This document shows positions 10,580 through 31,417 of a stretch of 32,000 nt of DNA, in pieces. The translations under genes were made by a program, and so were the position numbers. Source of the stretch: Candidatus Saganbacteria bacterium (lineage in GTDB: Bacteria > Margulisbacteria > WOR-1 > JAKLHX01); contig JAPLKZ010000011.1 of NCBI GenBank assembly GCA_026387835.1, forward strand, positions 54,082-86,081, written 5' to 3'. Below the pieces are notes generated by a model. The model was not told the DNA's origin, searched no databases, and was given only the letters and a program-made list of their open reading frames with translations. Every line of letters begins with the position of its first letter. The stretch's first letter is position 1.

Positions 10580-10593
10580 GAAAAAAACTTTGG

Positions 10594-10621
10594 CTTAAAG
10601 CTTAAAACTTAAGTCTTAAAG
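10594..10621. repeat. Tandem heptamer array (CTTAAAG-like) x4
   Basis: cttaaag cttaaaa cttaagt cttaaag. A further copy sits at 10574-10580, separated by an A7 tract. The SD taggaggg follows at 10632-10639. Confidence 0.85.
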
Positions 10622-10647
10622 CTATAAATAATAGGAGGGAAATAAAG

Positions 10648-11163: not shown

Positions 11164-11194
11164 TCAACTGATGATGTGCGTTGGTTGGAATAAT

Positions 11195-11761: not shown

Positions 11762-11784
11762 GAAGTAAAAAGGAGGATATAGAT

Positions 11785-12585: not shown

Positions 12586-12616
12586 GGCCGATGTAACGTG
12601 ATGGAAGCCCATTATT

Positions 12617-17076: not shown

Positions 17077-17117
17077 CTCACCCCCTTCCCCTCTCTTGAC
17101 AAGAGAGGCGGGGTGAG
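17077..17117. terminator. Bidirectional hairpin filling the gap between convergent genes
   Basis: CTCACCCC-cttcc-CCTCTCTTG-a-CAAGAGAGG-c-GGGGTGAG. The nested inverted repeats occupy all 41 nt between the TAA at 17074-17076 and the minus-strand stop at 17118-17120. The flanking U-tracts are only partial. Confidence 0.55.
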
Positions 17118-20100
17118 TTAAAAGTTGATCGTCCCCTCGAACGTCATCATATTTGCCCTGAAATTATTTGAAGATATAAGGTAGTCCGTATAGTCGACCT
17201 CCTTGTATGTCGCCGAAAGCACGATGCTCGACAATATCAGGCTTTCCTGAGGGAGGGTGATGTTGAAGGAATAGCTGTTCGTCACCTTAAGTATGTCAAG
17301 GTTTGTGACGACCCCGGCCTGCACTTCGCCTTTGTTCCTTTCCTGCTGCCAGTTGTAGACAAGGCTCCCCCAGCTAAATATCTTCAGGGTGGTCTGCGCG
17401 TCTAAATTTTCTTTCGGGCGTTCCGCGTTCAAAATAAGGTCTTTTGTCGTCTTCATCGCATAATTCCCGGAAAAGCTGAGGATCGATACCGGGGAAAAAC
17501 TCAGGCCGTATTTTAATGTGGTGTTTTCGGTCTTAGTGGTTATAATCCCGTCGCTGGTATTGTTGTTATAATCCTCGATTATATAGTCCGAATTCAGCGT
17601 GAACAAGCCGAAAGGAGTGATGCTGCCGTTGAAGTTCTTTGTCTCCGAGTTGAGATCGGTTATTATTTCGGAGCTCCCGCTCGGCGCGGAAGACTGACGT
17701 TCCTGCGTATCCCACCTCGAACCCAGCTTGAGAAAAGAAAATGGAGTGAAGTCTACGGAAACATTCTTTGCCACGCCCTTACTCCTTGTCCCGGCCTCCT
17801 GCAGGGATTTGTCGTCGGATCTGCCGTAGGCAAGTGACAGGACGGAAAATGGCGTGAACCTGACAGAATAGTTGTCTTTTTCTGTATTTGGGTTTTCCTG
17901 GTCTGCCTGGACGCTTAATGTTTCGGTACGGTTCTTATCATACGTGGCCGAAAGGTTGCTGAGCGGATCAAGGACGACATTATAGGATTCGTTCTTTGTA
18001 AAGACTTTGGCCAGTGTCAGGGCATTCAGCTGGTCGTGCTGGATCAGTCTTGCCCTTGTCGAGAATTTCTTCAGAAATCCGAAAGTGAGGTCCCAGTCCG
18101 CATTGTACGTGCTGTCGCGCGAGATCTCGCAGTAGGTCACTCCCTCGCTGGTATGATTTTTTGGTTCGCTGTACTGGAACTCATACCCAAGCCCCAGCCT
18201 TTTTGCCACGTTGAGCGTGTTAGCGGTATGGAAAAATCCGACGGTAGAGCCGGAGTCGTCGAGAAAGTTGGTCGTCTCGCTCTTGGAGAAATCCTCCCTG
18301 TTGGTGAAAGCCACGTATTTCGAATCAACGCTCTTTGGGACGACGGAAAAAGCGAGCGAGTTCGTGATGTTGTTTGACTGATGCGTTGTCGATCCCGGCA
18401 GGATGTCGTCCATGACCTTGTAATTCCTGAAGTTCATGTTAATCTGGACAAGGCCTTTAGGATTCACGCCGATACCTATGTTCCTGTCGGTATTCCAGGT
18501 GTAATAGCCCGTGTACGTGCCGATCTGGCTCTTGGTCTCGAGTATGCTTGAGGCTACGGACAGAGATTCCCCGGAACTGTACCCGAGATCGATCCTTTTC
18601 TGCTGGCTTCCGGTGCCGATATTGGTGGATTCGAAAGGAGTATAATCGGCATTGATCTCTTTGATGTAAGCACCGACCGAGAACGGCCCGGCTTTTGTGG
18701 CCGCATTGACCCTGTATGCGGCGCCGGTCTTGACGGTAGACCCTGTTGATATTCCGGACGACGACTGGTAATCGTACTGTATGACCATCGTATCCGCAGG
18801 TTTTATCGTGAGATAATAGAAACTCAGCTGGCCGCTCTGATAGTTCATAAAATAGTCGACGTCCTTGTTCATCTGGAAATTGTTCAAAAAGACCTTTTCC
18901 GAGCCCTCTATGATATTGTTGTGCGACAGGCTGTACGGTCCGCGGGTGTTGTTCCCGATGATCGTGTCCTGTGTTGATTCCGACATTATCACCTGGTCGG
19001 TCCTGCTGATGCCGACCGCCGCGTCGATCACGGTGTCGGGTCCGATCGTGATATTCGTGTTCACGCCAGTCACGTCGTGGTTGATGTCGCTGTCCTGGAC
19101 AGACGCGCTCGCGGGTATGTAATAGAACGTTATGTCGAACTTCTTCTGGTTAGGGAACGGATCGTTAAAAGTTATGTAGGGAGTGTACGGGAAGTTGTAG
19201 TTTATCTTGTATTTGCCGTCCGCTACTTCTCTCGAGCTGTTACGCGTAAATGTATCGATGACGGAACTGCCGTCAGTCCTGACCTGCATGTTGGTATCGG
19301 TCGCCGGCACTACGGAGTTGATGCTCGTCAGATAATAAGGTCCCGTACTCCCGTTGCCGCGGCCGCTGAATTTTCCGTAAATACTTTTCTTGTAAACATA
19401 GTTGACCGCTATATCCGCTGACGCGTCAAGCGTGGATGTGAATTTTAATGTGCCTGTCGCATAGCCGTCGCTCGCATCGTCTTTATCGTTCAGATAAGGC
19501 ATATGAAGGCCTATTGCTTCTGAAGTCGGCACGTAGAAATCAGCGAAAGGGGTACCGTTCACGGTCACGGATACCGTCTGTGACGGGTCAAGAGGGAAAT
19601 GCTTCAGGTTGAGAAGATTGTTCGTTATCTCGCTTCCTTTTCTGGCTTCGACAAGAGTGGCTGTTGCGGCGGCGGAGCCTTTTTTGGCGGACTCTTTCAG
19701 ATATGTGGCCCCCAAAGTGAATGAGCTTTTGCTCGGGGGGACCAAAGCATCAGTATGTATCACAAAGGAATAGGAAGCGTTTATTTTTGAGGCGGCATTT
19801 ATTTTTGTGTTAAAAGTTATTTTTCCGGAATTATAATCTATCGTGTAATCCAGGCCCCTGAAGTTCTTCTTGCCGTCCACCTCGATGCGCTCGGAGTTCT
19901 TTACGACAGGATATTCGGTCATCTCATACGGCCCCTTGCTGTCGATCCCTGATATGACCTCGGATTCGCCCGAGACGTTGTAATAGCTGTATTTTACAGA
20001 AAGAGTATCATCGCTTGTGGGCATGTCTTCCAGCATGGCTGTTATAGTCCCGTAAGTATAATCTATGACATAGTCCTCGTATTTTTTCAGGAGCGTCCCT

Positions 20101-21146
20101 TTGTGATAGACAGATTCCGAATACTCTACCACGGGAAAATGCTTCAGCCGGTACAATCCCATGGCTTCTTCGCTGATAAAAGACGGTCTCACGAACTCCG
20201 GTTTAAGCGTTTCAGCGGATGAAGGTGCCGCTTCCGTGGAAGTCAGATAACCGGATTCTCCGGTGGCGGGGACGACGACCGGTCCGGCATCCGAATAAGA
20301 AAATGACGTCGGGAATTCATCGTTTGCTTCATATGATATCGGCATAGACGGTATGACCTCGGCTTTTTCAAAGAACATCCTTTTAGACGTGTAAGATCCC
20401 TGGACGCCGAAAAAGTCGCGTTTTGACACCGTGGGAAAGAACAGGTCAAAAAGGTTGGTGAATTCGTAAGTGTACGTGAACTGGTCGGCGGCTGTCAGTA
20501 TCCTGGCAAAAGTTATCTTGCCCTCAAAGTAATCGATCGTGTAATCGGTCCCCCTTGTGAGCGGGATATTGTTCAGGAGGATCTTTTCAGAACTCTCAAG
20601 GATCGATCCGTGACCGAGGCTGTAAGGGCCCCTTGTATTGTTGCCGATCACGGTGCTGATCGGCTGGTTGTTGCTTTTGAGCTTTGTTGACGGGACCAGG
20701 GTGAAAGTGTAATTATCTCCGGACGAGGTCAGCATCACGCCGTTCAGGTACTTTGTCGCCGAAACGAATTCGTTGCCAGAAAAACTTGCAGTGAAATCGC
20801 CGAATGTCAGCTCCGTGTTGTCGTATTTCACCTTAACATCAGATACCTGGGGCGTATCGGGCTCCTGTAAAATATTATATGAGACCCCGAGATGATCGTT
20901 CAGCTTGCTGTCTATCTTCAAGGTCAGTCTTTCCTGCCACTGCCCCGCGAGGGCGTTCTGCGACTGGCCTCCGAGCTGGGTGAGGGCGATGAAATAGTTC
21001 GACATCGGTTCCGCCTGGACCCTGTAGTACGACCATTTCTTAAAGCCGGATATATCGAACTGGGGATAGGTATCCGCGAACACACCACTTATAAGGACCG
21101 CCAGCGTGACGGCCAGCACAGCTATGAACGCGCGTTTCATTTTCAA
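17118..21146 (-). CDS. Very large outer-membrane protein: ~800 aa of repeated beta-sandwich modules plus a C-terminal beta-barrel-like region ending in Phe
   Basis: 1342-aa ORF. The track start is TTG 21146, and ATG at 21140 (MKRAFIAVLAVTLAVLISGVFA) is more likely. Repeated modules include IGNNTRGPYSLGHGSILESSEKILLNNIPLTRGTDYTIDYFEGKITF, IGNNTRGPYSLSHNNIIEGSEKVFLNNFQMNKDVDYFMNYQSGQLSF and KGPYEMTEYPVVKNSERIEVDGKKNFRGLDYTIDYNSGKITF. The C-terminal part has four [FI][TS]P[FV][SG]xLxL hairpin motifs and ends TFEGTINF. Confidence 0.7.
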   Translation of the reverse strand: MKMKRAFIAVLAVTLAVLISGVFADTYPQFDISGFKKWSYYRVQAEPMSNYFIALTQLGGQSQNALAGQWQERLTLKIDSKLNDHLGVSYNILQEPDTPQVSDVKVKYDNTELTFGDFTASFSGNEFVSATKYLNGVMLTSSGDNYTFTLVPSTKLKSNNQPISTVIGNNTRGPYSLGHGSILESSEKILLNNIPLTRGTDYTIDYFEGKITFARILTAADQFTYTYEFTNLFDLFFPTVSKRDFFGVQGSYTSKRMFFEKAEVIPSMPISYEANDEFPTSFSYSDAGPVVVPATGESGYLTSTEAAPSSAETLKPEFVRPSFISEEAMGLYRLKHFPVVEYSESVYHKGTLLKKYEDYVIDYTYGTITAMLEDMPTSDDTLSVKYSYYNVSGESEVISGIDSKGPYEMTEYPVVKNSERIEVDGKKNFRGLDYTIDYNSGKITFNTKINAASKINASYSFVIHTDALVPPSKSSFTLGATYLKESAKKGSAAATATLVEARKGSEITNNLLNLKHFPLDPSQTVSVTVNGTPFADFYVPTSEAIGLHMPYLNDKDDASDGYATGTLKFTSTLDASADIAVNYVYKKSIYGKFSGRGNGSTGPYYLTSINSVVPATDTNMQVRTDGSSVIDTFTRNSSREVADGKYKINYNFPYTPYITFNDPFPNQKKFDITFYYIPASASVQDSDINHDVTGVNTNITIGPDTVIDAAVGISRTDQVIMSESTQDTIIGNNTRGPYSLSHNNIIEGSEKVFLNNFQMNKDVDYFMNYQSGQLSFYYLTIKPADTMVIQYDYQSSSGISTGSTVKTGAAYRVNAATKAGPFSVGAYIKEINADYTPFESTNIGTGSQQKRIDLGYSSGESLSVASSILETKSQIGTYTGYYTWNTDRNIGIGVNPKGLVQINMNFRNYKVMDDILPGSTTHQSNNITNSLAFSVVPKSVDSKYVAFTNREDFSKSETTNFLDDSGSTVGFFHTANTLNVAKRLGLGYEFQYSEPKNHTSEGVTYCEISRDSTYNADWDLTFGFLKKFSTRARLIQHDQLNALTLAKVFTKNESYNVVLDPLSNLSATYDKNRTETLSVQADQENPNTEKDNYSVRFTPFSVLSLAYGRSDDKSLQEAGTRSKGVAKNVSVDFTPFSFLKLGSRWDTQERQSSAPSGSSEIITDLNSETKNFNGSITPFGLFTLNSDYIIEDYNNNTSDGIITTKTENTTLKYGLSFSPVSILSFSGNYAMKTTKDLILNAERPKENLDAQTTLKIFSWGSLVYNWQQERNKGEVQAGVVTNLDILKVTNSYSFNITLPQESLILSSIVLSATYKEVDYTDYLISSNNFRANMMTFEGTINF

Positions 21147-21149
21147 TCA

Positions 21150-21178
21150 ATTTTAGCAGTAATGATATATATTGGCAA
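21150..21178 (-). promoter_or_regulatory. Sigma70-type promoter for the 1342-aa OMP gene, near-leaderless
   Basis: On the minus strand: TTGCCA (21178-21173), a 17-nt spacer, then TAAAAT (21155-21150). Nine nt (tgattgaaa) follow before ATG 21140, with no SD. Confidence 0.5.
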
Positions 21179-21193
21179 TATAAAATATTTTGC

Positions 21194-21240
21194 TTGACGC
21201 AATCCTTGGCGCAAACTTGGCGGGAAAAGGTGTGGGCCAG
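21194..21240. repeat. Direct repeat copy A, upstream of the AAA ATPase gene
   Basis: TTGACGCAATCCTTGGCGCAAACTTGGCGGGAAAAGGTGTGGGCCAG. The 26-nt core differs at one position from copy B, and the similarity is looser beyond it (GGGAA..GG..GGCC, then GACAATT). Confidence 0.8.
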
Positions 21241-21331
21241 CGATTAGTCAGATTGACAATTCAAAGCGCGTGGCGTAAAATAGGGGATTGAATCACTAAA
21301 TTACGCTAATTGGAATTTAAAGGAGTGAGGA

Positions 21332-22471
21332 ATGTTTAAAAGACTTTTAACTGAAAAGATAAAAAGGAAAATGTTCAAGGGAAAGGCGATAATTATAACC
21401 GGCGCCAGACAAACCGGAAAAACAACATTATCTATTAACCTGATCAAGGGATCGGAATATTCAGGAACGGTTAGAGCCTTTAATTGCGATAACCCGACTG
21501 ACAGAGAGATGCTTTCGGACAAGGATTTTGAGTTCCTTGATCAGCTTATCGGGGATTCGAAGATCATCTTTATTGACGAGGGTCAGAAGGTCGAGACGAT
21601 AGGGCAGACGTTGAAACTGCTTTGCGACCGCTATAAAAAGAAAAAACAAATAATCGTGACCGGATCATCGAGCATTAATTTGTTGGACAGCACACAAGAG
21701 GCTTTGACAGGCAGGAAGCATGTATATACACTTTTCCCTTTAAGCCTCGAAGAAATAAAAGCAGCCGGAGGCCAGCTGGCAGTTATCAAACAACTGGAAC
21801 AACTATTGGTGTTCGGCAGTTATCCGGAAATACAGCTCCAGCGCTCGTTCAGGGACAAGATCGATCTTTTGAAAGAGCTTTCATCAAGCTACCTGTACAA
21901 AGATATCCTGGAATTCCAGCAGGTGAAGAACGCAAACATTCTGGGAAAGCTCATTAAGGCTCTTGCTCTTCAGATAGGATCGGAAGTCTCGTATAATGAG
22001 CTTTCGAACCTGATCGAGATCGACAAGAAAACAATAGAAAGATATATAGATCTTCTCGAAAAGAACTATGTTGTGTTCAGGCTTCCACCTTACACAAAAA
22101 ACAAGAGGAGAGAGATCTCCCGTCATAAAAAGGTGTACTTTTATGATCTGGGCATAAGGAACGCAGTCATAAACAATTTTAATTTTCTGGACAGCCGCAG
22201 CGATGCCGGCGCTCTATGGGAAAATCTCATGGTCGTTGAGCGGCTCAAGTACAGGAGCTATCATGAAATATACGCAAGCCAGTATTTCTGGAGAACTTAT
22301 GACGGCAGCGAGGTCGATCTGGTCGAGGAAAGGCAGGACAAGCTGTACGGCTATGAGTTCAAATGGGGGACAAGCAATAAAAAACCAAGACCGCCCGCAA
22401 AATGGGCGCAGTATCAGAACAGCTCTTATCAGCTTGTCGGAAGAAAAGACATTTCCGGGTTTGTAATGTAG
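21332..22471 (+). CDS. AAA+ ATPase of the COG1373/DUF4143 type
   Basis: 379 aa with SD aaggag. Walker A: ITGARQTGKTTL. Walker B: IIFIDEGQ. Further blocks: IVTGSSS and LTGRKHVYTLFPLSLEE. The C-terminal part (YFYDLGIRN...YFWRTYDGSEVDLV) is typical of this stand-alone ATPase family. Confidence 0.8.
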   Translation: MFKRLLTEKIKRKMFKGKAIIITGARQTGKTTLSINLIKGSEYSGTVRAFNCDNPTDREMLSDKDFEFLDQLIGDSKIIFIDEGQKVETIGQTLKLLCDRYKKKKQIIVTGSSSINLLDSTQEALTGRKHVYTLFPLSLEEIKAAGGQLAVIKQLEQLLVFGSYPEIQLQRSFRDKIDLLKELSSSYLYKDILEFQQVKNANILGKLIKALALQIGSEVSYNELSNLIEIDKKTIERYIDLLEKNYVVFRLPPYTKNKRREISRHKKVYFYDLGIRNAVINNFNFLDSRSDAGALWENLMVVERLKYRSYHEIYASQYFWRTYDGSEVDLVEERQDKLYGYEFKWGTSNKKPRPPAKWAQYQNSSYQLVGRKDISGFVM

Positions 22472-22568
22472 GAACTCTGAACGCCATTCTCCCGCCCCAA
22501 CCTCCATACCATTCCAAAAACAATGCTGTCTTCATTTTGCGTATTTCGAGAAAAAACTAAGTTCGAGA

Positions 22569-22612
22569 TTGACACAATCCTTGGCGCAAACTTGATGGGA
22601 ACTGGAGGCCGG
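22569..22612. repeat. Direct repeat copy B, downstream of the AAA ATPase gene
   Basis: TTGACACAATCCTTGGCGCAAACTTGATGGGAACTGGAGGCCGG, followed by GACAATT as in copy A. Confidence 0.8.
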
Positions 22613-22672
22613 ACAATTATGCACAAGAAATTAACCTAACATTTTTCCAATGCTGTAACGGTGCAAAAATTA

Positions 22673-22701
22673 TGGACAACTTTATATATATGTGATAAAC
22701 T
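22673..22701 (+). promoter_or_regulatory. Promoter of the thioesterase-HK1 unit, paralogous to the one at 25325
   Basis: TGGACA (22673-22678), a 17-nt spacer containing (TA)4, then TGaTAAACT (-10 at 22696-22701). The SD aaggag follows before ATG 22755. Confidence 0.45.
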
Positions 22702-22754
22702 TTACCCTGAAAACTAAAAGAAAACCATTTTTAAATTGAGAAAAGGAGTGTATC

Positions 22755-23198
22755 ATGTCAAAAGAGTTTATATTCGAAAAGACAATATATCTTTGCGACA
22801 CAAACGCTTTCGGGAATGCATATTTTTCGAAATATTTTGAATGGCAGGGTATGGCAAGAGAGGCTTTTTTTAGAGTTATCATGCCGGATCCTTTTTATTT
22901 GATGAATACGGGGACAAAACTAATTACAAAACGAGCGGCAGTGGAATACAAGCACGAAGTTTATCTCTATGATGATATTGAGATCGGCATAAAAGTAGGG
23001 GCTGTAAAACCGGCAAGCTCAGAACTGATATTTAATTATCGAAGAAAAAAAGATAATTTATTGTTTGCATTAGGTTATCAGGCCATATTATTTGCAGATA
23101 AAAATGGCGAGCCGATCAAAATACCAAAGGAGATCGTTGAAAAAGCAAGGCCTTATACAGATGAAGTGAAATATGTATTAGGGAAAATATTTAAATAA
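22755..23198 (+). CDS. Hotdog-fold acyl-CoA/acyl-ACP thioesterase (4HBT/YbgC-like)
   Basis: 147 aa. The block IYLCDTNAFGNAYFSKYFEWQGMAREAFF matches the 4HBT signature (catalytic Asp near the N-terminus, then hV.n..Y..yfe.a). The stop is 5 nt before the HK1 ATG. Confidence 0.7.
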   Translation: MSKEFIFEKTIYLCDTNAFGNAYFSKYFEWQGMAREAFFRVIMPDPFYLMNTGTKLITKRAAVEYKHEVYLYDDIEIGIKVGAVKPASSELIFNYRRKKDNLLFALGYQAILFADKNGEPIKIPKEIVEKARPYTDEVKYVLGKIFK

Positions 23199-23203
23199 CG
23201 TGT

Positions 23204-25300
23204 ATGAATGTCTATATTATCCCGCCATTAATTAGCTCTTTACTTTTTGCGATTATTGGACTATTTGTTTTACGGAATAATGCCAAATCAAAGATAAATG
23301 TCGCATTTTTTCTGGCTTGTTTATCCACTTTTTGGTGGCAATTCTCATGGGTATTCCTCTTCTCTACTTCAAATGAACAATTAGCTTCGATACTGGTGAG
23401 ATTGGGCTATTCAGGAATAATCCTAATTCCCATCACTTTGTATCATTTTTTTGTGGAGTTCATTAAAGCAGATAATGAAAAAAAATACGTTAAATTATCG
23501 TATCTGATCGGTATAATATTCCTTTATTTTAATTGGTTTACAAATTATTTTATTCAGGGCTATTATGTTTATTTCTGGGGATTTTATCCAAAAGCGAATT
23601 ATCTGCATCTGGTTTATCTATTAATGTTGACAATATTAGACTTAAGGGCAATATATTTACTTTACAAGAAAATGATTACAGAACAAATTAGTTCAATAAA
23701 GAGAGAGCAGATAAAATACGTGCTTTTATCCTTGATTTTCTACACGTTTGCAGCCTCAGATTTTCTAGTGAACTATGGCGTAGAATATTATCCTTTTGGT
23801 TTTATTCCAATACTTTTTACATTTGCAACGATTTCCTATGCCATCACCCGCTACCGCCTCATGGATATCAACGTCATCATACGCAAAGGTCTGATCTTTT
23901 CCGCGATAACATTGGTTTTCTCCGTGCTTTACATGTCGATCATCTACGGTTCCGAATACCTGCTTAAGCCGATAGTCCCGTTCAATATAATGTGGATCAC
24001 GCTTCCCGCGATATTCGTCCTCGCGCTGTTCTTCCAGCCGATCAGCGAAAAGGTCCAGGGATTCATAGAGAGAAATATTTTTAGAAAGCAGTATTTGGCC
24101 GATAGGATAGCTAAAAAATTCTCTAACGGCATAAAGGAGCTGATGAACATAGATGACCTGGCGACATTTATCACAAGGGCCGCGGTAAAAGTATTTAAAC
24201 TGAAAGGCTCCGCAATATTTGTCATCAGTGAAAAAGACGGGAAATACCTGTGCCTCGATTCAAGAGGCTCTTTTGGCAGATACAAAGGCTCATTCTTTCC
24301 GGCTGAGGCCATAATTATTGCGGAAATGCGATCGTCGAAAAAAGCGATCGTGAAAGAAGAAATAAGGCTTAAGATGGAACAGGCAACAGGCAGTGAAAAA
24401 GGCCATTACAAGAGGATAATGGAGAGGTTTGAGGAACTCGATTCCTTCATCCTGGTCCCTAGCATATCCTCCAAAAGAGGCGGAGAGGTGGTAGGTTTTC
24501 TGATCGGCGGAGAAAAGGAGAGCGGCGACATGTTCTCGGCGGAGGATATCTCGCTCCTAGAGACATTTTCAAGTCAGGCTTCCGTCAGCATCGAGAACGC
24601 GCTCATGTACCAGGCGCAGGTGGATGAGATAGAGCAGTCGATCAAAAAAGGAAGGATGTCGGAGCTTGGCTCGACAGCGGCGGGCGTCGCGCACGAAGCG
24701 AAGAACGCGCTTAACTATATCAACCTGTTCGCGCAGGTGCTTCACCTCAAAAAGGATGATAAAGAATTCTTGAAGAGCGCATCGCAAAGCTTTGAGTCAG
24801 AGACAGAGAGGATGAGGATACTGATGGAAGGAGTTGTTGACTATTCAAACCCGACGGCAATAGAGATAAAAGAAGAGAGTTTAAAGAAGATCATAGATGA
24901 AACTGTAATCCTCGTGAGGGACCACGCGAAGGGAAAGAATATCGCGATAGAAATAAATGTCGATGAAAATGCGACGATAAAAGTAGACCGGAACAGCATA
25001 AAACAGGTATTCCTGAACCTCTTCCTAAACGCGCTTGATGCGATGCAGAAGGATGGCAAGCTGGCGGTAAAGGCAGAAACCGGGGCCGAACAATTATTTA
25101 TAAGCATCTCCGATACCGGCTGCGGCATACCCGAAGCAAAGCTCCAAAAGATATTTGAGCCCTTCTTTACCACGAAAGAGCAGGGCACAGGCCTCGGTCT
25201 TGCTATCGTGAAGAAGGCGGTTGAAGCTAATAGGGGGCAATTATCTGTTGAAAGCAGGGTGGGGGCGGGGACAACGTTCAAATTGGCGTTCGCATTATAG
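23204..25300 (+). CDS. Membrane sensor histidine kinase: N-terminal ~7TM domain, GAF-like domain, HisKA, HATPase_c
   Basis: 698 aa. About seven hydrophobic spans in the first ~290 aa. GAF-like region: LATFITRAAVKVFKLKGSAIFV...VGFLIGGEKESGDMFSAEDISLLETFSSQASVSIENALMYQ. H-box: AAGVAHEAKNALNYI (His codon 24692-24694). N-box: FLNLFLNALDAM. G1: DTGCGI. F-box: FEPFFTTK. G2: GTGLGLAIV. Confidence 0.85.
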   Translation: MNVYIIPPLISSLLFAIIGLFVLRNNAKSKINVAFFLACLSTFWWQFSWVFLFSTSNEQLASILVRLGYSGIILIPITLYHFFVEFIKADNEKKYVKLSYLIGIIFLYFNWFTNYFIQGYYVYFWGFYPKANYLHLVYLLMLTILDLRAIYLLYKKMITEQISSIKREQIKYVLLSLIFYTFAASDFLVNYGVEYYPFGFIPILFTFATISYAITRYRLMDINVIIRKGLIFSAITLVFSVLYMSIIYGSEYLLKPIVPFNIMWITLPAIFVLALFFQPISEKVQGFIERNIFRKQYLADRIAKKFSNGIKELMNIDDLATFITRAAVKVFKLKGSAIFVISEKDGKYLCLDSRGSFGRYKGSFFPAEAIIIAEMRSSKKAIVKEEIRLKMEQATGSEKGHYKRIMERFEELDSFILVPSISSKRGGEVVGFLIGGEKESGDMFSAEDISLLETFSSQASVSIENALMYQAQVDEIEQSIKKGRMSELGSTAAGVAHEAKNALNYINLFAQVLHLKKDDKEFLKSASQSFESETERMRILMEGVVDYSNPTAIEIKEESLKKIIDETVILVRDHAKGKNIAIEINVDENATIKVDRNSIKQVFLNLFLNALDAMQKDGKLAVKAETGAEQLFISISDTGCGIPEAKLQKIFEPFFTTKEQGTGLGLAIVKKAVEANRGQLSVESRVGAGTTFKLAFAL

Positions 25301-25324
25301 TGTTTCCTTGCCTCATAAAAATAT

Positions 25325-25353
25325 TAGACAACATTCTATATATATGATAAACT
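25325..25353 (+). promoter_or_regulatory. Promoter of the AONS-small ORF-HK2 unit, paralogous to the one at 22673
   Basis: TAGACA (25325-25330), a 17-nt spacer containing (TA)4, then TGaTAAACT (-10 at 25348-25353). ATG 25368 lies 14 nt after the -10 box and no SD is visible. Confidence 0.45.
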
Positions 25354-25367
25354 TACTCTAAAATAAA

Positions 25368-26684
25368 ATGGCGATGAACGAAAATATTTTAGATAAACAA
25401 GTTTCAGAGTTGATCAATGAATCAGAAAATATTCAGGTCGGCAAGCTAATACGGTCTTTAAAAGGGAAAAATGTCGGCGAACTGAATAAAAAAGCAATAA
25501 TTACTTACCTGGTGATCTCCGCTCAAAACAATCTCGGAATATTTCCTTATAATAGATACATGAAACAAGGGAATAAAATATATTCAAAAATAATATCACC
25601 GGACGATAAAAAGGAAGTCGATTGCATTGTCTGGTGCAGCAATCACTACTTGGGGCTAAACAAAAATCAGAAAATAATAGATTATGCGGCAGAAGTTTTA
25701 AGTAGTAATGGAACGGGGTGCGGAACTTCAGCCGTGTCCGGAGGATTTAGTGAAATACATAAGAAGTTGGAAGAAGACTTAGCAAATATAGAAGGAAAAC
25801 CGGAGTCAGTTCTTTTTTCAACGGGGTATACAACAAACCTCGGAGCAATAAGCGCTCTTGCCGATAAAAATGATCTGTTGATAATTGACAGGGAAAGCCA
25901 TGCAAGCATAATTGATGCCGTAACAATGTCAGGGGCTGATTTCAGGGTGTTCAAGCATAATGATATAAACTATCTGGAAGACATACTGAAAAAAACAGAC
26001 AGAAATAAATATAAAAATATATTTATCTTGACGGAATCAGTTTTCAGTATGAGCGGCGACGAAGCTCCTTTGAAAGAATACATTAAACTGAAAAAGAAGC
26101 ATGGATTTTATTTGTATGTTGATGAAGCGCACGCATTTGGGTTTTACGGCCAAAAGGGTGCTGGCCTATGTGAGCATTTAGGATGTGGAGACGATACGGA
26201 ATTTATTATGTCCACATTGAGCAAGGCAACAGCTTCGATAGGCGGATTTGTGGCAACGGAAAAATATTATTGTTCATACATTAGATTTAACTCCAACCCA
26301 TATTTATTCCAAGCCAGCATTCCTCCGGTCGATGCGGCGGTGTCAATTGCGGCATTAAAATTGATCAGAGAAGACAAGACGCTGGCGAAGAAACTTTGGG
26401 AAAATACAAAAAAGTTTAGGGAAATGGTTAAAAAATCCGGATTCAATGTTGGGAATAGCAAAAGCCCTATTGTCCCGGTTTATGTATCTGACGAATCAAA
26501 ATTATCACGATTATGCAAGGAACTTTTTAGCAATGGAATATTTACAAATTGGGTTTCATACCCGGTAGTTTCAAAAAAGCAGGGACGGTTAAGATTTGTG
26601 GTGACAGCTTCCCATACTAACGAGCATATAGAAAAAACAGTGCAAATATTAACGAAGCTTGGCAGGGATATCGGGATAATATAG
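25368..26684 (+). CDS. PLP-dependent alpha-oxoamine synthase family acyltransferase (BioF/Kbl/SPT/CqsA family)
   Basis: 438 aa. Blocks: VWCSNHYLGL, FSTGYTTNLGAISAL, IIDRESHASIIDA, ESVFSMSGDEAPL, LYVDEAHAFGFYG and the PLP-Lys block STLSKATASIGGFV. About 85 residues precede the SN.YLGL block, which is longer than in BioF/Kbl as I recall and closer to serine palmitoyltransferase. Confidence 0.8.
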   Translation: MAMNENILDKQVSELINESENIQVGKLIRSLKGKNVGELNKKAIITYLVISAQNNLGIFPYNRYMKQGNKIYSKIISPDDKKEVDCIVWCSNHYLGLNKNQKIIDYAAEVLSSNGTGCGTSAVSGGFSEIHKKLEEDLANIEGKPESVLFSTGYTTNLGAISALADKNDLLIIDRESHASIIDAVTMSGADFRVFKHNDINYLEDILKKTDRNKYKNIFILTESVFSMSGDEAPLKEYIKLKKKHGFYLYVDEAHAFGFYGQKGAGLCEHLGCGDDTEFIMSTLSKATASIGGFVATEKYYCSYIRFNSNPYLFQASIPPVDAAVSIAALKLIREDKTLAKKLWENTKKFREMVKKSGFNVGNSKSPIVPVYVSDESKLSRLCKELFSNGIFTNWVSYPVVSKKQGRLRFVVTASHTNEHIEKTVQILTKLGRDIGII

Positions 26685-26686
26685 AT

Positions 26687-26833
26687 ATGGAGATCAAAAA
26701 AGAAGAGCTGATCAAAATCGCAAAAGAAAAGGGAATTCCAGAAACAATAAAAATGCTGGCGGAAAATAAGATCACTATAAATATCACGATCAAGGAAATG
26801 CTCGATTGTTTTTTAACAAACGCAAATAAATGA
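26687..26833 (+). CDS. Small ORF (48 codons), hypothetical, translationally coupled between the AONS gene and HK2
   Basis: Absent from the ORF track (too short). The ATG lies 2 nt after the AONS TAG, and the TGA overlaps the HK2 ATG (ATGA at 26830-26833). Product: MEIKKEELIKIAKEKGIPETIKMLAENKITINITIKEMLDCFLTNANK. The tight coupling is the only evidence for coding. Confidence 0.4.
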   Translation: MEIKKEELIKIAKEKGIPETIKMLAENKITINITIKEMLDCFLTNANK

Positions 26834-28947
26834 TAAAACTGATCGTTTTTATCAGCCAGATATCCCCTGTAATTGCTTCGGTGATCTGCATAATGCTGGG
26901 TTTGAGCGTTTATCTTTATAACAGCAGACTGAAAAGGAACAGGCTTTTCCTTATATTCAGCTTAATATTATCTATTTGGGCATTCTCCTGTTTTATGCAA
27001 AGTTACACGCACAGCTTTATGCTTGCACAATATTATGATATTGTGCTGTACTGCGCAGCGGTGTTTGCGCCAACAATATTTTTTCATCTTTCGGGTGAGT
27101 TCACAAAGATCAAAAGGAAGGGTTTGACAATAATATGCTACCTGGCAAGCATAACATTATTTTTTATGAACTTTTCCCCGGTATTCAGGTTCGGCGTGGT
27201 TTATTTGCAAGGCAACAGATTTGTCACCGTTCCTTCAATTGGCTGGTATATATATCTCGTGTTTTTTACTTCTATAGTAGGGGTTGCCCTTTACGATCTA
27301 TACGATTTAATAAGAAGATCTTTTGGGCAGATAAAACTACAAGCCTATTATTTGTTGATTTCTTTCGGCTTTTTGATTATTGGAGGCAGTAGTTATTTTG
27401 CTTTGATAATGTTCAAGATCAGATATCCTGCAGATGCAATATTTAATTTAATATCTTCGACAGCACTTTCCTTCTATGAAATAACAATAGCTTATGCAAT
27501 CACGCGGTATAGATTAATGGAGATCGAAGTAATAATAAGGAAAACGTTATTATATTCATCTCTCACTGCCGTCATTTCCGCCGTCTATTTTTCGCTGATC
27601 TATATCTCCGACTTCTTTTTTAAGACACTGACAGGTTACAACTTTATGTGGGTGACGATCCCATCACTGTTCGTGCTCGCCATCTTCTTTCAGCCGTTGA
27701 AGAACTACCTGCAGCAGAGGATTGACAAAACTTTTTTCAAAACTAGGTATGAGGCCGATAAAATAAGGGTCAAATTCTCGGACGGCATAAACAAGCTGAT
27801 GAAGGTGGAAGACCTTGCCGAGTATATAAACAGGGCGGCATACAAAATATTCAAGTTGAGTGGGTGCGCGACGTATATTTTTGATGAGGACCAGAGAAAA
27901 TATATCTGCTATGACGCGAGAGGGACTATGGCAGAGCAAAAAACAAAGACATTTTCGGATAACGACCCGCTGATCCTAGAGATCAAAAAAAGCCGGAAAG
28001 TGGTATTGAGGGACGAGCAAAAAGCGATGATGCAGCAGGAAGGGAATAATACCTCCAGGGTGCTTTACGAGGAGATGAAGAACATGAACGCGAGGATCTG
28101 CGTGTCCAGTCTTTCAAGAAAAAAAGATTACAGGCTGATCGCGTTCCTTATCGCCGACGAAAAAAAGTCCCAGGACCAGTTCACTTCGGAAGACATATTA
28201 TTGCTGGAGACAATAGCCAGCCAGGCGGTCCTCAATATCGAGAACGCGGTGCTTTACCAGGCGATGATAGAGGCTAAAAAAAGGAAACTGCAGATCGAAC
28301 GGCTATCGGACCTCGGGGCCGCGGCAGCGAATGTCGCGCGCGAAGCAAGAGCCGCTCTCGCGCCTATAATAAGCTTCAGCAGGCAGTTCGCGCGCAGGTG
28401 GGATGATCCCGGGTTCTTAAATAACGCCCAGGAATACCTTCCGTTCGAAGTCGAACGTCTCCGGCTGATCCTGACGGGGATCCTGGAATACTCAAGGGAA
28501 TTCAAGTACGGTCTTGAGAGGATAAATCTTAAAGATACCGTCGGCAGCATGCTCGGTATAATAAAATTCGAAGCAAGGAACAAGAATATAACTCTTGAGG
28601 AAGACATAAACGATGACATCGAGATCAACGCGGACAAGGACAGGATCAGGCATGTCATGCTGAACCTGTTTATTAATTCGATGGAAGCCATGCCGTACGG
28701 CGGTAAAATTTCTGTTTCAGGAAAAAAAGAGGAAGGGAAAGTCGTCGTCAGGGTCTCCGATACGGGCTCAGGCATCCATCATAATACGATCGATAAAATA
28801 TTCGATCCCTTCTACACCACCAAAAAGAACGCGATAGGACTGGGCCTTGCCATAGTCAGGAAAGTGATCGAGGGACACGGCGGCGCGGTAAGAGCTGAAA
28901 GCAGATCGGGGCAGGGAACAGATATTATAATAACGTTGCCGCAGTGA
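26830..28947 (+). CDS. Paralog of HK1 (7TM-GAF-DHp-HATPase_c) with a degenerate H-box (Arg in place of the phospho-acceptor His)
   Basis: 705 aa and collinear with HK1: YAITRYRLMEIEVIIRK, FFQPL, LAEYINRAAYKIFKLSGCATYIF, LLLETIASQAVLNIENAVLYQ. The H-box position reads AANVAREARAALAPI (CGC at 28339-28341). The ATP-binding motifs are intact: MLNLFINSMEAM, DTGSGI, FDPFYTTK and GLGLAIVRKVIEGHGG. Confidence 0.85.
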   Translation: MIKLIVFISQISPVIASVICIMLGLSVYLYNSRLKRNRLFLIFSLILSIWAFSCFMQSYTHSFMLAQYYDIVLYCAAVFAPTIFFHLSGEFTKIKRKGLTIICYLASITLFFMNFSPVFRFGVVYLQGNRFVTVPSIGWYIYLVFFTSIVGVALYDLYDLIRRSFGQIKLQAYYLLISFGFLIIGGSSYFALIMFKIRYPADAIFNLISSTALSFYEITIAYAITRYRLMEIEVIIRKTLLYSSLTAVISAVYFSLIYISDFFFKTLTGYNFMWVTIPSLFVLAIFFQPLKNYLQQRIDKTFFKTRYEADKIRVKFSDGINKLMKVEDLAEYINRAAYKIFKLSGCATYIFDEDQRKYICYDARGTMAEQKTKTFSDNDPLILEIKKSRKVVLRDEQKAMMQQEGNNTSRVLYEEMKNMNARICVSSLSRKKDYRLIAFLIADEKKSQDQFTSEDILLLETIASQAVLNIENAVLYQAMIEAKKRKLQIERLSDLGAAAANVAREARAALAPIISFSRQFARRWDDPGFLNNAQEYLPFEVERLRLILTGILEYSREFKYGLERINLKDTVGSMLGIIKFEARNKNITLEEDINDDIEINADKDRIRHVMLNLFINSMEAMPYGGKISVSGKKEEGKVVVRVSDTGSGIHHNTIDKIFDPFYTTKKNAIGLGLAIVRKVIEGHGGAVRAESRSGQGTDIIITLPQ

Positions 28948-30195
28948 TCAGCCGTTGAACTTCCTGGCTATAAGTATCGCATTATGACCGCCGAAACCGA
29001 ATGAATTGCTCATAATAACATTTACCTTCATCTCTCGTCCTTTGTTCGGGACATAATCAAGATCACATTCGGGATCGGGGACACTGTAGTTGATCGTCGG
29101 GTGGACAAAACTATGTTTTATCGAAAGCACGCTGGCCGCGAACTCAACCGCGCCGGCTGCTCCCAGAAGATGCCCGACCATGGATTTTGTTGAACTTATC
29201 GCCACCTTCCTGGCATGGTCCCCGAAGACATCCTTTATCGCGAGCGTCTCTATCTTGTCGTTCATCTGGGTGGAAGTGCCGTGGGCGTTGATATAATCGA
29301 TCTTGTCGGGGCTCAGGCGCGCGCTCTTAAGGGCGGCTTTCATCGCCCTGATGGCGCCGTTGCCGTCGGCAGCAGGCGCTGTCATGTGATAGGCGTCGCC
29401 GCTCATCCCGTAGCCGATGACCTCGGCGTATATCGTCGCCCCTCTTTTTTTCGCGTGTTCAAGTTCTTCAAGTATTACAATGCCGGAGCCTTCCCCCATT
29501 ACAAAACCGTCGCGTTCTTTATCGAAAGGCCGCGATGCTGTTTCGGGAGAGTCATTTCTGCACGAGAGCGCCTGGGCAGCGCAAAAACCCGCGATACCGA
29601 GAGGGGTTATAGATGCTTCAGTGCCGCCTGATATCATGGCGGCCGCTTCACCTCTTCTGATGATCTCATAAGCGTCGCCTATCGCGTTCGTCCCGGAAGC
29701 GCAGGCCGTGGTCACGCACGAGTTAGGCCCTTTTGCTCCCGTATTAACGGACACCATTCCTGCCGCCATGTCGTTTATCATAAGCGGTACCATAAAAGGG
29801 GATGTCTTTCCCGGGCCTTTTTCTTTTAATATATGCGCTTGTTCTTCAAGGAACTGGATCCCGCCGATCCCTGAGCCGATAATGACCCCGATCGAAGGAG
29901 CGGTATCGGGATTTATCTCAAGGTTAGCATCTTTCAGCGCCATCTGCGAAGCGGCGACCGCGAACTGGATGAACCTGACCAGCCGCCTTGCTTCTTTTTT
30001 GTCAAGATAGGCTGACGGGTCAAAACCCTTCAGTTCGCCGGCGATTTGGCAGTCAAAGGCCGCGGGATCAAAATGAGTTATACGCCTTATGCCGCTGGTC
30101 CCCGCTTTTAAAGCTTCCCAGAAAGCGTCTTTACCGAGCCCGACGGGTGTCACGGCTCCGATGCCGGTCACTACTACTTTTTTTTGATCGCTCAT
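28948..30195 (-). CDS. fabF: 3-oxoacyl-ACP synthase II
   Basis: 415 aa with SD aggagg. N-terminus: KKVVVTGIGAVTPVG. Active-site Cys in TTACASGTNAIG, and the two His in NAHGTSTQMND and KSMVGHLLGAAG. C-terminus: SNSFGFGGHNA. Confidence 0.92.
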   Translation of the reverse strand: MSDQKKVVVTGIGAVTPVGLGKDAFWEALKAGTSGIRRITHFDPAAFDCQIAGELKGFDPSAYLDKKEARRLVRFIQFAVAASQMALKDANLEINPDTAPSIGVIIGSGIGGIQFLEEQAHILKEKGPGKTSPFMVPLMINDMAAGMVSVNTGAKGPNSCVTTACASGTNAIGDAYEIIRRGEAAAMISGGTEASITPLGIAGFCAAQALSCRNDSPETASRPFDKERDGFVMGEGSGIVILEELEHAKKRGATIYAEVIGYGMSGDAYHMTAPAADGNGAIRAMKAALKSARLSPDKIDYINAHGTSTQMNDKIETLAIKDVFGDHARKVAISSTKSMVGHLLGAAGAVEFAASVLSIKHSFVHPTINYSVPDPECDLDYVPNKGREMKVNVIMSNSFGFGGHNAILIARKFNG

Positions 30196-30218
30196 CCTTT
30201 GTTATCCTCCTGAGAAGG

Positions 30219-31099
30219 TCAGGCCGCGGCAATTTTACCGCAGGCTTTTTGCGAAACGATGTCCAGGCATGCCTGGGATTCCCTCACCAGATCGTTGATA
30301 ATATCAGCGGCCGGCCTGATGCGCCTGTCTTTGATCCTGCAGACTCTTTCTCCCGAAAAGACGAGGCCGTTGTCGACATCTCCTTTTTGGGATTTCTTAA
30401 GCACGTCAAATATGCAGTACTGCTTCGAGCAGTTTTTCAGGCAGTCATCGCAATAGGGGATGTCCGGATAAATGCCTTTGTCCATATTTTCCGTAAGCTT
30501 TGTTATAAGAGCCCTTCCTGGAAGGCCCACGGGACTTTTGATTATGATCACATCCTCTGGCTTTGTCGCTCTCTGGTGGACCGCTTTGTACTCGGGCGCG
30601 GCGTTACATTCCTCGGCCAGGATAAAACTCGTGGCTATCTGCACTCCGTCGGCGCCGAGACTTATCATCTTCGCGATCCTTTCGCCGTCGGTTATGCCTC
30701 CTGCCGCGATGACAGGGATATCGGACACGGCTTCTTTGACTTCTTTTAAAAGAGTCTCCGTGTCCTTATCAAGGGTGCCGAGATGTCCCTGGAAAAGCCC
30801 GCTCCGGAAGTAATAAAGTCGATCTTTTCCCTTATGGCGGTGTTGACGATCCCGAGAAAATCTTTCGCGGCATAAAGGATGTTGATCCCGATTATGCCGC
30901 CATTGGCTATCTTCCTTGCGATCCTTATCTCGTTGGCGAGCTCATCATGCTCCATTCCCGAGGCGCCAATGACACCAACGGCGCCGGTAGCGGCCACAGA
31001 GCCCGCGAGCTTTCCGGTGGATATCCTTATGGACATCCCTCCCTGTATGATCGGTATTTTTGCTACCAGATCGCCGATTTTAAGTTCCGGCAGTTTCAT
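30219..31099 (-). pseudogene. FabK / nitronate-monooxygenase-family enoyl-ACP reductase II-like gene, split into two frames with a central segment apparently missing
   Basis: The N-terminal ORF 31099-30746 (MKLPELKIGDLVAKIPIIQGGM...GIIGINILYAAKDFLGIVNTAIREKIDFITSGAGF) stops after a 15-codon out-of-family tail. The C-terminal ORF (track 30728-30219) is open further upstream in another frame: ...LFQGHLGTLDKDTETLLKEVKEAVSDIPVIAAGGITDGERIAKMISLGADGVQIATSF. The frames cross at ~30786-30812. Confidence 0.6.
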
Positions 31100-31165: not shown

Positions 31166-31417
31166 TTAATTCTTGGAATGGGACATTACATACGTGACCG
31201 TGTCCCCGACAGTCTTTATCTTTTCGGCTTCCTCGTCAGGTATCTCAAGACCGAAAGATTCTTCAAGAGCCATGACCAGCTCTACGGTATCAAGGGAATC
31301 AGCTCCCAGGTCGTCGACAAAGGAAGCGGTCTTTGTCACCTCCGCGTCGCTCACCCCGAGCTGTTCAACGACTACTTTCTTAACGTCCTCAAATACTTTC
31401 TGTTCATCAAGTGCCAA
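31166..31417 (-). CDS. acpP: Acyl carrier protein
   Basis: 83 aa with a TTG start and SD gggggtg. Phosphopantetheine attachment motif: [19 protein letters not shown]. Confidence 0.92.

Follow-up and report, generated by a model that had tools for sequence, protein, structure and literature searches.

Introduction

The closest described systems are CqsA/CqsS of Vibrio and LqsA/LqsS/LqsT/LqsR of Legionella, in which a synthase of the alpha-oxoamine synthase (AONS) superfamily is encoded beside a membrane sensor kinase (PMC3376566). We analyzed a locus of comparable layout in a 32,000-nucleotide stretch of contig JAPLKZ010000011.1 from a metagenome-assembled genome of Candidatus Saganbacteria, hereafter the window. 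Here, a gene for a hotdog-fold thioesterase and a gene for an AONS each precede the gene of a membrane kinase, HK1 and HK2, respectively, with a predicted seven-transmembrane (7TM) N-terminal domain. To our knowledge, AONS-based signalling has so far been described only in a few Proteobacteria (CAI-1, LAI-1).

Other systems offer looser parallels. In RpfF/RpfC, which uses DSF, and PhcB/PhcS, which uses 3-OH fatty-acid methyl esters, the gene of a fatty-acyl-modifying enzyme, a thioesterase/dehydratase or an S-adenosylmethionine methyltransferase, lies beside that of a membrane sensor kinase. The thioesterase and HK1, as well as methyltransferase and 7TM-kinase cassettes in two related contigs (L094 and L095), parallel these pairs, although the enzyme families (crotonase RpfF versus hotdog) and the sensor domains are unrelated. 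In Lgs of Bacteroides fragilis, an alpha-oxoamine synthase that is not CqsA is encoded beside a regulator that answers the released product (10.1101/2025.08.20.671311). That receptor, however, is a cytoplasmic TetR repressor controlling the GA3 type VI secretion system in another taxon and context, and the likeness is one of arrangement.

The window shares with Cqs/Lqs a synthase gene next to that of a polytopic sensor kinase lacking a periplasmic domain, a second, paralogous kinase (compare LqsS and LqsT) and, presumably, a fatty-acyl-derived substrate; the AONS gene, a small open reading frame (ORF48) and the HK2 gene are contiguous or overlapping. The differences are substantial. The AONS belongs to another clade, with 26% identity to CqsA and 201.2 bits against the CqsA-type model NF005526 (cutoff, 428). 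The receptor combines a 7TM domain of the HisKA_7TM type with a GAF-like domain, whereas the CqsS/LqsS domain has six transmembrane (TM) helices and no detectable homology to it: comparing the N-termini of V. campbellii CqsS and Ralstonia LqsS-like proteins (FPQPYEN motif) with the 7TM class gave an hhalign probability of 0.2% and no phmmer match. Moreover, neither a receiver domain nor LqsR is encoded in the window, the kinase linked to the AONS has lost its phospho-acceptor histidine, and ORF48 is extra. A first-pass annotation, made from the sequence alone, had raised a possible CqsA/CqsS-like system of deviating domain make-up, an interpretation that the analysis supports. The synthase-sensor linkage and the deviation stood; the pair is not a member of the Cqs/Lqs family and is best read as CqsA/CqsS-like by analogy.

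We propose that the locus comprises two co-regulated cassettes, each of an enzyme and a cognate 7TM receptor, in a variable slot beside the genes of type II fatty acid synthesis (FAS II). We put the probability of this synthase-receptor reading at roughly 0.55.

Organization of the locus

Domains were assigned by scanning an open reading frame (ORF) map of the 32-kb window with Pfam and NCBIfam profiles at curated cutoffs. The features of the locus are as follows.

22665..22708, plus strand: promoter P1 (unit 1), TGGACA-17-TAAACT with a TG extended -10, then TTACCCT
22755..23198, plus strand: hotdog-fold (4HBT_2) acyl-thioesterase, 147 aa; PF13279, 41.1 bits (cutoff 25.5)
23204..25300, plus strand: HK1, 698 aa, 7TM (HisKA_7TM), GAF-like, DHp and HATPase domains; HisKA_7TM, 49.1 bits (cutoff 28.6)
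24692-24694, plus strand: phospho-acceptor His497 of HK1, H-box VAHEAKNAL
25317..25360, plus strand: promoter P2 (unit 2), TAGACA-17-TAAACT with a TG extended -10, then TACTCT
25368..26684, plus strand: AONS, 438 aa; Aminotran_1_2 (PF00155), 167.6 bits
26223-26225, plus strand: predicted Schiff-base lysine K286 of the AONS, from alignment to serine palmitoyltransferase (SPT)
26687..26833, plus strand: ORF48, 48 aa, kept in relatives by position; no Pfam or NCBIfam match
26830..28947, plus strand: HK2, 705 aa, 7TM, GAF-like, degenerate DHp and HATPase domains; HATPase_c, 88.6 bits
28339-28341, plus strand: R504 of HK2 (codon CGC) in place of the phospho-acceptor His, H-box VAREARAAL
28948..30195, minus strand: fabF (beta-ketoacyl-ACP synthase II); TIGR03150, 647 bits (cutoff 494)
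31166..31417, minus strand: acpP (acyl carrier protein, ACP); DSLD motif in the translation

The two tandem enzyme-kinase units of the first-pass annotation were recovered with all of their features. Specifically, HK1 starts 5 nt past the thioesterase stop codon, and ORF48 overlaps HK2 by 4 nt; the NCBI record starts the AONS at 25374 rather than 25368. The kinases are paralogous over their full length, as proposed (36% identity, E 3e-135). In HK1, the HATPase_c match scored 93.3 bits, while GAF_2 (25.1) and HisKA (20.2) were sub-threshold. In HK2, HisKA_7TM (25.5) and GAF (18.6) fell just under the cutoff, and the cautious label "GAF-like" given at first pass is appropriate for both proteins. 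The N-terminal domain of about seven TM helices predicted at first pass is supported by PF16927 in HK1. For HK2, it is supported by homology to HK1 and to further HisKA_7TM members (E 1e-31 to 1e-54) and by an AlphaFold2 model of residues 1-300, a 7-helix bundle with a pLDDT of 92.6. A Foldseek search of this model against the PDB returned just generic GPCR-like bundles (E >= 1e-3, TM-score ~0.5), which do not indicate homology.

As the first-pass annotation had noted, fatty-acid genes adjoin the locus: fabF, the first gene of the FAS II cluster, is convergent with HK2, abutting its stop codon with zero intergenic bases, and acpP lies further on. A search of positions 21000-30500 against Rfam gave no RNA family match.

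The NCBI record (P0122) presents HK1 as a 479-aa "ATP-binding protein", 69% of the ORF, from which the entire 7TM domain is omitted. The long form is supported because an orthologue (P0121; 82% identity, same thioesterase gene upstream) is also 698 aa long.

Identity of the AONS

The AONS has the features of the alpha-oxoamine synthase superfamily, the pyridoxal phosphate (PLP) enzymes of fold type I: the Aminotran_1_2 fold, the Schiff-base lysine, the PLP-stacking histidine, a D-x-x-H motif and the carboxylate-binding arginine. Its residues H178, D252, H255, K286 and R409 align with the active site of Sphingobacterium SPT and are invariant in 39 members of its clade, fusion proteins included. 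Judged by sequence, it is a catalytically complete PLP enzyme from an uncharacterized clade of acyl-thioester:amino-acid C-acyltransferases.

Scores against the curated families were uniformly sub-cutoff: 339.9 bits for BioF (TIGR00858; cutoff 426.45), 339.6, 333.1 and 246 for the SPT models NF047600, NF047599 and NF047603 (640, 500 and 670), 327.4 and 273 for the Kbl models NF005394 and TIGR01822 (460 and 493) and 272 for ALAS (339). Seven clade members from other phyla were likewise under every curated cutoff. Identity amounted to 26% with the CqsA of V. cholerae and of Streptomyces, no more than 35% with SPT, and 40-70% within the clade, which has the specific motifs WCxNHYLGLN, DEAHxFGxYG and PYLFQA.

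A neighbour-joining (NJ) tree of 345 columns and 200 bootstraps was calculated with eight references: BioF and Kbl of E. coli, Cupriavidus BioF, Vibrio Kbl, Rhizobium ALAS, S. multivorum SPT and the CqsA of V. cholerae and Streptomyces. The 80 clade sequences split from all eight with 99.5% bootstrap support, and the CqsA pair branched outside the clade. Since the 80 loci are those that matched the query best, what can be read from the tree is that no reference nests in the clade; it does not show the clade to be exhaustive. Because all scores are under the cutoffs and the branch is separate, the AONS is of none of the curated families. The first-pass annotation had kept open that the enzyme was a housekeeping BioF, Kbl or SPT-like enzyme; this alternative was not borne out.

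Among solved structures, the best match was S. multivorum SPT (PDB 3a2b; 237 bits, ~35% identity), with the same His, Asp-x-x-His, Lys and Arg; CqsA scored 110 bits. Unlike an SPT, the AONS misses three NCBIfam cutoffs, has motifs of its own and is linked to signalling genes instead of sphingolipid genes. Co-localization of ceramide-pathway genes has been used as a criterion for SPT (PMC11334938). The genes adjoining the AONS encode kinases, not bCerS or CerR, and no bioA, bioB, bioC, bioD or tdh occurs in the window. A paper on a Nostoc punctiforme alpha-oxoamine synthase deals with a cyanobacterial BioF homologue (PMC8895605). In the literature searched, nothing ties the AONS clade to sensors, GGDEF or PilZ.

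Linkage of the AONS clade to signalling proteins

We surveyed the genomic context of the clade using one genome per species. The survey returned 80 loci, and counts are given over 81. The loci represent Margulisbacteria, Cyanobacteria, Bacillota, Fibrobacterota, Myxococcota/Desulfobacterota, Pseudomonadota, Bacteroidota, Planctomycetota and Nitrospirota. A signalling domain is fused to the AONS or encoded within 700 bp of it in 56 of the 81 loci, in at least eight phyla. The expectation was 12%, given the 6.4% background frequency in genes of these loci that do not neighbour the AONS. A kinase catalytic core lies within the same distance in 35 loci. AONS subclades follow the type of partner in the NJ tree.

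The partners have at least seven architectures. Margulisbacteria have 7TM-GAF kinases and, in one case, a 7TM-SpoIIE phosphatase. Clostridia-type Bacillota and some Deltaproteobacteria have hybrid kinases of ~950 aa (6TM-HisKA-HATPase-REC-REC-Hpt), and Planococcus, Filobacillus and Cohnella have 6TM-(PAS)-GGDEF-EAL proteins. Kinases of ~620 aa occur in Proteobacteria and Flavobacteriales. Calothrix and Nostoc encode Ser/Thr-kinase-AAA-TPR-GAF-His-kinase proteins of ~1820 aa, which are divergently transcribed, 390 bp off and without translational coupling to the AONS. Receiver proteins of 223 aa are found in Fibrobacterota, and receivers adjoin the AONS in some Margulisbacteria too. The seventh architecture is the AONS-GGDEF fusion (L016 and L025). 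GAF-AONS and PilZ-AONS fusions occur among metagenomic homologues; together, the three kinds of fusion tie the enzyme directly to signalling.

The arrangement is also kept at close range. All four close Saganbacteria-like relatives with retrievable context have an AONS followed by a HisKA_7TM kinase, bearing out, together with the survey, the enzyme-kinase synteny that the first-pass annotation had proposed to examine. In the P0002 contig (AONS 70% identical), the chromosomal slot is the same and contains an AONS, a 48-aa ORF and a kinase; L096/L097 (65%) have an AONS, a 56-aa ORF and a kinase; L095 (62%) has an AONS paired with a 7TM kinase; and L001 (61%) has a GAF-AONS fusion and a kinase between different flanks. 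Single-domain receiver proteins flank AONS-kinase pairs in relatives.

Several loci are of separate interest. A Nitrospirota member (L028, 5456-6718) has a FadL/TodX-type outer-membrane channel for hydrophobic compounds downstream, and members from Myxococcota/Deltaproteobacteria and Legionella wadsworthii (L036, L041, L051 and L080) adjoin a fatty-acyl-AMP ligase (FAAL)-ACP didomain protein; these neighbours are hints to export and to the acyl donor. Some Margulisbacteria loci (L039, 5188-13885; L002, 9863-15056) have two to three HisKA_7TM proteins around a single AONS, among them a 517-aa 7TM protein without a recognizable kinase core. In L002, an 84-aa piece of a 7TM N-terminus comes straight after the AONS. 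These patterns suggest that receptors were repeatedly duplicated and then decayed. A Photobacterium plasmid also carries a clade member (H1), in an uninformative context.

Sensor domains beside the AONS

The adjoining partners are polytopic: 5-9 TM helices are predicted in them, and a periplasmic domain of any size is lacking. Their N-termini form three classes that are mutually unrelated by phmmer and by hhalign (probability <=1.2%, the CqsS/LqsS receptor domain included). Class A is HisKA_7TM, joined to kinase or SpoIIE outputs. Class B is a highly conserved, unannotated 6TM domain of ~200 aa that is common to hybrid kinases (L044, L048, L055, L067, L073 and L078) and to (PAS)-GGDEF-EAL proteins (L033, L056, L071 and L072), with E values of 1e-43 to 1e-69. 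It starts with ...LHPLSLSFxDxxLExEFKxxYDxExRxFNRIGI..., has no Pfam or NCBIfam model and adjoins an AONS in every case. Class C is a ~370-aa region of the ~620-aa kinases. In the literature searched, HisKA_7TM was mentioned solely in two domain censuses, and nothing connected the class B or C domains to signalling.

In these comparisons, the conserved unit is the AONS with its sensor domain, while the output varies. One sensor domain attached to different outputs beside the AONS is what would be expected of a ligand synthase and its receptor.

Mosaic structure of HK2

The two halves of HK2 have different nearest relatives. Its N-terminal 290 residues are nearest to AONS-linked 7TM domains (53, 48, 43 and 40%; 37% for the SpoIIE protein). 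Its cytoplasmic part is nearest to kinases adjacent to fabF: that of L094, which is methyltransferase-linked (73%), and that of L091 (73%). The L094 kinase, in turn, has an N-terminus nearest to that of the other methyltransferase-linked kinase. Bootstrapped NJ trees of the half-kinases, based on Poisson distances, gave the same picture. In the N-terminal tree, all eight AONS-linked 7TM domains formed one clade with 100% support and the two methyltransferase-linked domains another, also with 100%. In the C-terminal tree, HK2, L094 and L091_470 grouped together with 100% support.

Base composition follows the same boundary. The GC content of third codon positions (GC3) was 0.32 for the thioesterase, 0.38 for the AONS, 0.41 for ORF48 and 0.43-0.46 for the TM halves of the kinases, versus 0.58-0.62 for the cytoplasmic halves and 0.55-0.65 for the flanks; within HK2, the values were 0.46 and 0.62, respectively. 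Because the trees are incongruent and GC3 agrees, the enzyme and its matching 7TM domain move as a unit onto resident transmitter modules. Across Saganbacteria, the 7TM domain goes with the enzyme encoded upstream (AONS, methyltransferase or thioesterase), and the cytoplasmic half goes with lineage. HK2 is a mosaic of a 7TM domain of the AONS-linked type and a cytoplasmic half of the fabF-adjacent, His-less type. Of the evidence presented here, this co-inheritance argues most strongly that the AONS is linked, specifically and functionally, to the sensor domain of HK2.

Phospho-acceptor histidine of the kinases

HK1 has H497 together with the N, G1, F and G2 boxes of a classical (HisKA-type) kinase. 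In HK2, the boxes are intact, and R504 replaces the phospho-acceptor His, a loss overlooked at first pass. This His is at least 90% conserved over 59 family members. A single-base error could account for R504, but orthologous modules are also His-less, with K in L094, L091 and L093 and S in the AONS-linked L095_717, and the state is therefore conserved. On these residues, HK1 would be a member, and HK2 a degenerate member, of the classical histidine kinases.

A His-less and a His-bearing 7TM kinase share the neighbourhood in the window, L091, L093 and L095. This suggests a pseudokinase-kinase pair, which in the window would be formed by the two kinases behind the twin promoters.

In the NCBIfam scan, the kinase cores were similar to those of AtoS/ZraS/PrsK-type kinases. 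Such kinases usually pair with NtrC-type regulators; the nearby receivers in relatives are single-domain. PrsK (TIGR02916) also has a multi-TM N-terminus, a GAF domain and a kinase core and aligned end to end. However, HK1 and HK2 scored 154.4 and 123.1 bits against a cutoff of 300, and the window contains no PrsR, exosortase or PEP-CTERM genes. PrsK membership was rejected on these grounds.

Twin promoters and the variable island beside fabF

The duplicated promoter reported at first pass was confirmed: positions 22665-22702 and 25317-25354 are 84% identical over 38 nt, and the window contains two copies of the 28-nt core and no others, versus zero in 100 shuffles. In a sigma-70-type scan, P1 and P2 both read TnGACA-17-TAAACT with a TG extended -10. 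The family TRGACA-17-TAAACTT(T)ACYCT has six instances on five contigs, each ahead of enzyme and 7TM-kinase cassettes. In L091/L092, the orthologous promoter lies ~285 nt upstream of the thioesterase gene; in L094, it is upstream of the cassette of a methyltransferase and an HK2-type kinase. The L095 instance precedes a dehydrogenase-methyltransferase-kinase operon and keeps the hexamers and the downstream TTACTCT with a different spacer. These instances point to a promoter, and possibly a regulator, shared by the cassettes.

P2 leaves a leader of only ~6-14 nt, the AONS start lying ~6-20 nt past the -10 hexamer with no Shine-Dalgarno sequence. In L096, the AONS is likewise near the -10: TGGGATAAT, 7 nt, ATG (L096, 845-882). 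Possibly, the AONS mRNA carries little or no leader.

In relatives, a variable island of enzyme and 7TM-kinase cassettes occupies the interval between fabF and the gene of a conserved 1340-aa protein. The thioesterase-HK1 cassette occurs in the window and, with no AONS, in L091 and L092 (thioesterase 95% and HK1 82% identical). A second kind consists of an AONS, in some cases the small ORF, and a kinase. An S-adenosylmethionine (SAM) methyltransferase and a kinase form the cassettes of L094 and L095, whose methyltransferases are 42% identical. The P0002 contig has a cassette of a PlsC-type acyltransferase, a DUF362 protein and a kinase, and L093 one of a 376-aa uncharacterized protein and a kinase. 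A 7TM-kinase cassette adjoins fabF in the P0002 contig, L091, L094 and L095 as it does in the window, and L091 and L095 have a PP-binding gene at the acpP position. The slot behaves as an integration hotspot.

The thioesterase itself matches the 4HBT_2 family, with Asp15 in YLCDTNAFGNAYF as the N-terminal catalytic Asp motif. The Tol-Pal YbgC equivalog was ruled out (TIGR02799, 38.9 versus 141 bits).

The left border of the island is an S8 subtilase with FlgD_ig and a convergent, beta-rich protein of ~1340 aa (faint DUF2460), with synteny kept in three relatives (window, 15109-21146; L091, 469-6569; also the P0002 contig). A DUF4143/AAA_14 ATPase gene recurs at varying positions of the island (window, 21332-22471; L091, 6675-8116 and 13903-15090; L095, 16011-17192), and the L091/L092 island also holds an AbiEi/AbiEii toxin-antitoxin pair.

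Proposed mechanism and alternatives

If the AONS and HK2 are synthase and receptor, the AONS would, from the chemistry of its family, condense an acyl-thioester and an amino acid; the product would be lipophilic, an alpha-amino-ketone or a derivative. The acyl donor might be acyl-ACP or acyl-CoA from the adjacent FAS II. Gene association and precedent suggest that the product would enter the membrane and be recognized by the 7-helix domain of HK2. HK2 lacks the phospho-acceptor His and therefore would not act as a classical kinase; speculatively, it most likely modulates or trans-phosphorylates the His-bearing HK1, which would be expressed from the twin promoter. The thioesterase might release another signalling molecule, for instance a free fatty acid, or adjust how much acyl-thioester is available, and the response regulator would be encoded outside the window. 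By analogy, the logic would be that of CqsA/CqsS, LqsA/LqsS/LqsT, RpfF/RpfC and PhcB/PhcS, with every component drawn from a different family.

A broader claim, which we regard as tentative and somewhat short of even odds, joins a previously unrecognized, phylum-spanning family of AONS signal synthases to plug-and-play cassettes in Saganbacteria. In its first part, at least three unrelated families of membrane-embedded receptor domains would perceive the lipophilic products and feed two-component, c-di-GMP and PP2C-phosphatase outputs. In its second part, the AONS, SAM methyltransferase, thioesterase and acyltransferase cassettes would form a repertoire of fatty-acid-derived signals that is integrated via pairs of His-bearing and His-less kinases. 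An AONS synthase beside a polytopic sensor is known; the AONS clade, the receptor domains, the diverse outputs, the His-less/His-bearing pairing and the modular cassettes are new.

Several points weigh against the synthase-receptor reading. It is based on gene association throughout. By its sequence, HK2 cannot perform canonical autophosphorylation and so would not be a classical kinase. The domain scan found no receiver, GGDEF or EAL domain elsewhere in the 32-kb window, which, as the first-pass annotation had stated, contains no response regulator. The binomial p of 2e-32 for the linkage is inflated by the shared ancestry of the loci, and the evidence is better counted as ~7 independent architectures. 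No signalling protein adjoins the AONS in 25 of the 81 clade loci; in some of these, the neighbours (FAAL-ACP or FadL) are of a kind typically seen in lipid or secondary metabolism. N-terminal GAF and PilZ domains and adjoining receivers would suit an AONS that is a regulated output equally well. Finally, the thioesterase-HK1 unit is present in L091 without an AONS. The first-pass annotation had seen the thioesterase as a companion of the AONS; because the unit is found without an AONS in a relative, it is a separate cassette and not an AONS accessory.

The alternative that survives best, although we consider it unlikely, is regulated lipid remodelling. The AONS, the thioesterase and, in relatives, the acyltransferase and methyltransferase would act on membrane or envelope lipids and be the output, the 7TM kinases would balance lipid composition by sensing the state of the membrane or, as feedback, the lipid product, and there would be no diffusible signal. 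Cassettes lie against the FAS II operon in five Saganbacteria contigs, the nearest solved relative of the AONS is an SPT, and the GAF-AONS and PilZ-AONS proteins are laid out like regulated enzymes. Two further kinds of neighbour fit as well: receivers beside the AONS (Fibrobacterota, some Margulisbacteria) and FAAL-ACP proteins (Myxococcota, Legionella). Against this, the membrane sensor domain is conserved whatever the output, and the outputs (kinase, GGDEF-EAL and SpoIIE) are not DNA-binding regulators of the enzyme gene. Enzyme type and 7TM type co-segregate through swaps, as ligand specificity predicts and generic sensing of the membrane state does not. Nor were ceramide or sphingolipid partner genes seen near the AONS in the window, and the enzyme is below the SPT cutoffs.

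It is distinctly less probable that the enzyme is itself the sensor, with the AONS and ORF48 binding the cytoplasmic part of the kinase or cyclase and reporting the supply of amino acid or acyl-thioester. The AONS-GGDEF fusions do place the AONS at the usual input position of a cytoplasmic diguanylate cyclase, the translation of AONS, ORF48 and HK2 is tightly coupled, and the conserved small ORF could serve as an adaptor. However, what is inherited along with the AONS is the membrane domain rather than the GAF/DHp half in the cytoplasm; all clade members, fusions included, share the catalytic residues; and the cyanobacterial partners are divergent, 390 bp away and uncoupled.

A housekeeping BioF, Kbl or SPT with unrelated kinase neighbours is effectively refuted: the generic AONS similarity (bioF 340, SPT-CFB 340 and Kbl 327 bits) misses the cutoffs of 426, 640 and 460, the clade is separate, no bio, tdh or ceramide-pathway genes adjoin, and the sensor linkage is kept across phyla. 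True membership in the Cqs/Lqs alpha-hydroxyketone family, to which the synthase gene beside a membrane kinase gene and the LqsS/LqsT-like second kinase might point, is refuted at the family level by the NF005526 score, the separate branch, the unrelated receptor domain and the lack of a receiver or LqsR in the window.

If the synthase-receptor reading is correct, amino-ketone-type lipid signals would be widespread, occurring in uncultured non-photosynthetic relatives of Cyanobacteria, in Cyanobacteria, in Firmicutes and in Fibrobacteres, and would be connected to c-di-GMP turnover. Three orphan families of membrane sensors, HisKA_7TM and the two unannotated domains, would gain ligands. The cassettes would also be a natural case of receptor-specificity modules, each an enzyme with its 7TM domain, being shuffled onto different transmitters. 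Cultured carriers, among them Planococcus, Cohnella, Filobacillus, Desulfosporosinus, Calothrix, Nostoc and Tolypothrix, make the idea directly testable.

ORF48 and other features of the window

ORF48 is translationally coupled to HK2 through the 4-nt overlap and has no TM helix. A sequence search returned the self match alone, and homologues surfaced through synteny only. L096/L097 have a homologous 56-aa ORF at the same position (43% identity over 42 aa, pairwise E 6e-12), and the P0002 contig has a 48-aa ORF there. The NCBI record also calls ORF48 a gene (P0241), and more distant AONS-kinase pairs lack it. As a guess, ORF48 may be an adaptor or an accessory of the enzyme. A 32-nt direct repeat (78%) between the 3' end of the thioesterase gene (23100-23131) and the 5' end of ORF48 (26696-26727) was judged to be probably due to chance because the L096 homologue of ORF48 lacks that stretch.

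Within the FAS II cluster, a fabK-like enoyl-ACP reductase of the NMO family (30219-31099, minus strand) is split into two ORFs in different frames: one of 117 aa covering profile positions 9-80 and one of 169 aa covering positions 193-331. The span is ~35 codons below the 324-348-aa gene of relatives, which leaves two explanations: a pseudogene created by a frameshift or deletion, or a mistake in the assembly.

Further upstream, positions 9296-15067 (plus strand) encode a series of small secreted paralogues (193, 171 and 196 aa) that share a C-terminal ...TYTTTVT(Y/F/I)T(M/V)T(E/Q) motif and have no Pfam match. A 223-aa secreted protein comes before them; after them come a secreted protein of 266 aa and a protein of 816 aa, the latter having an SdrD_B-like domain and, at its N-terminus, a pilus-formation region. 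The whole run resembles a locus for a fibre or pilus-type assembly that has escaped annotation.

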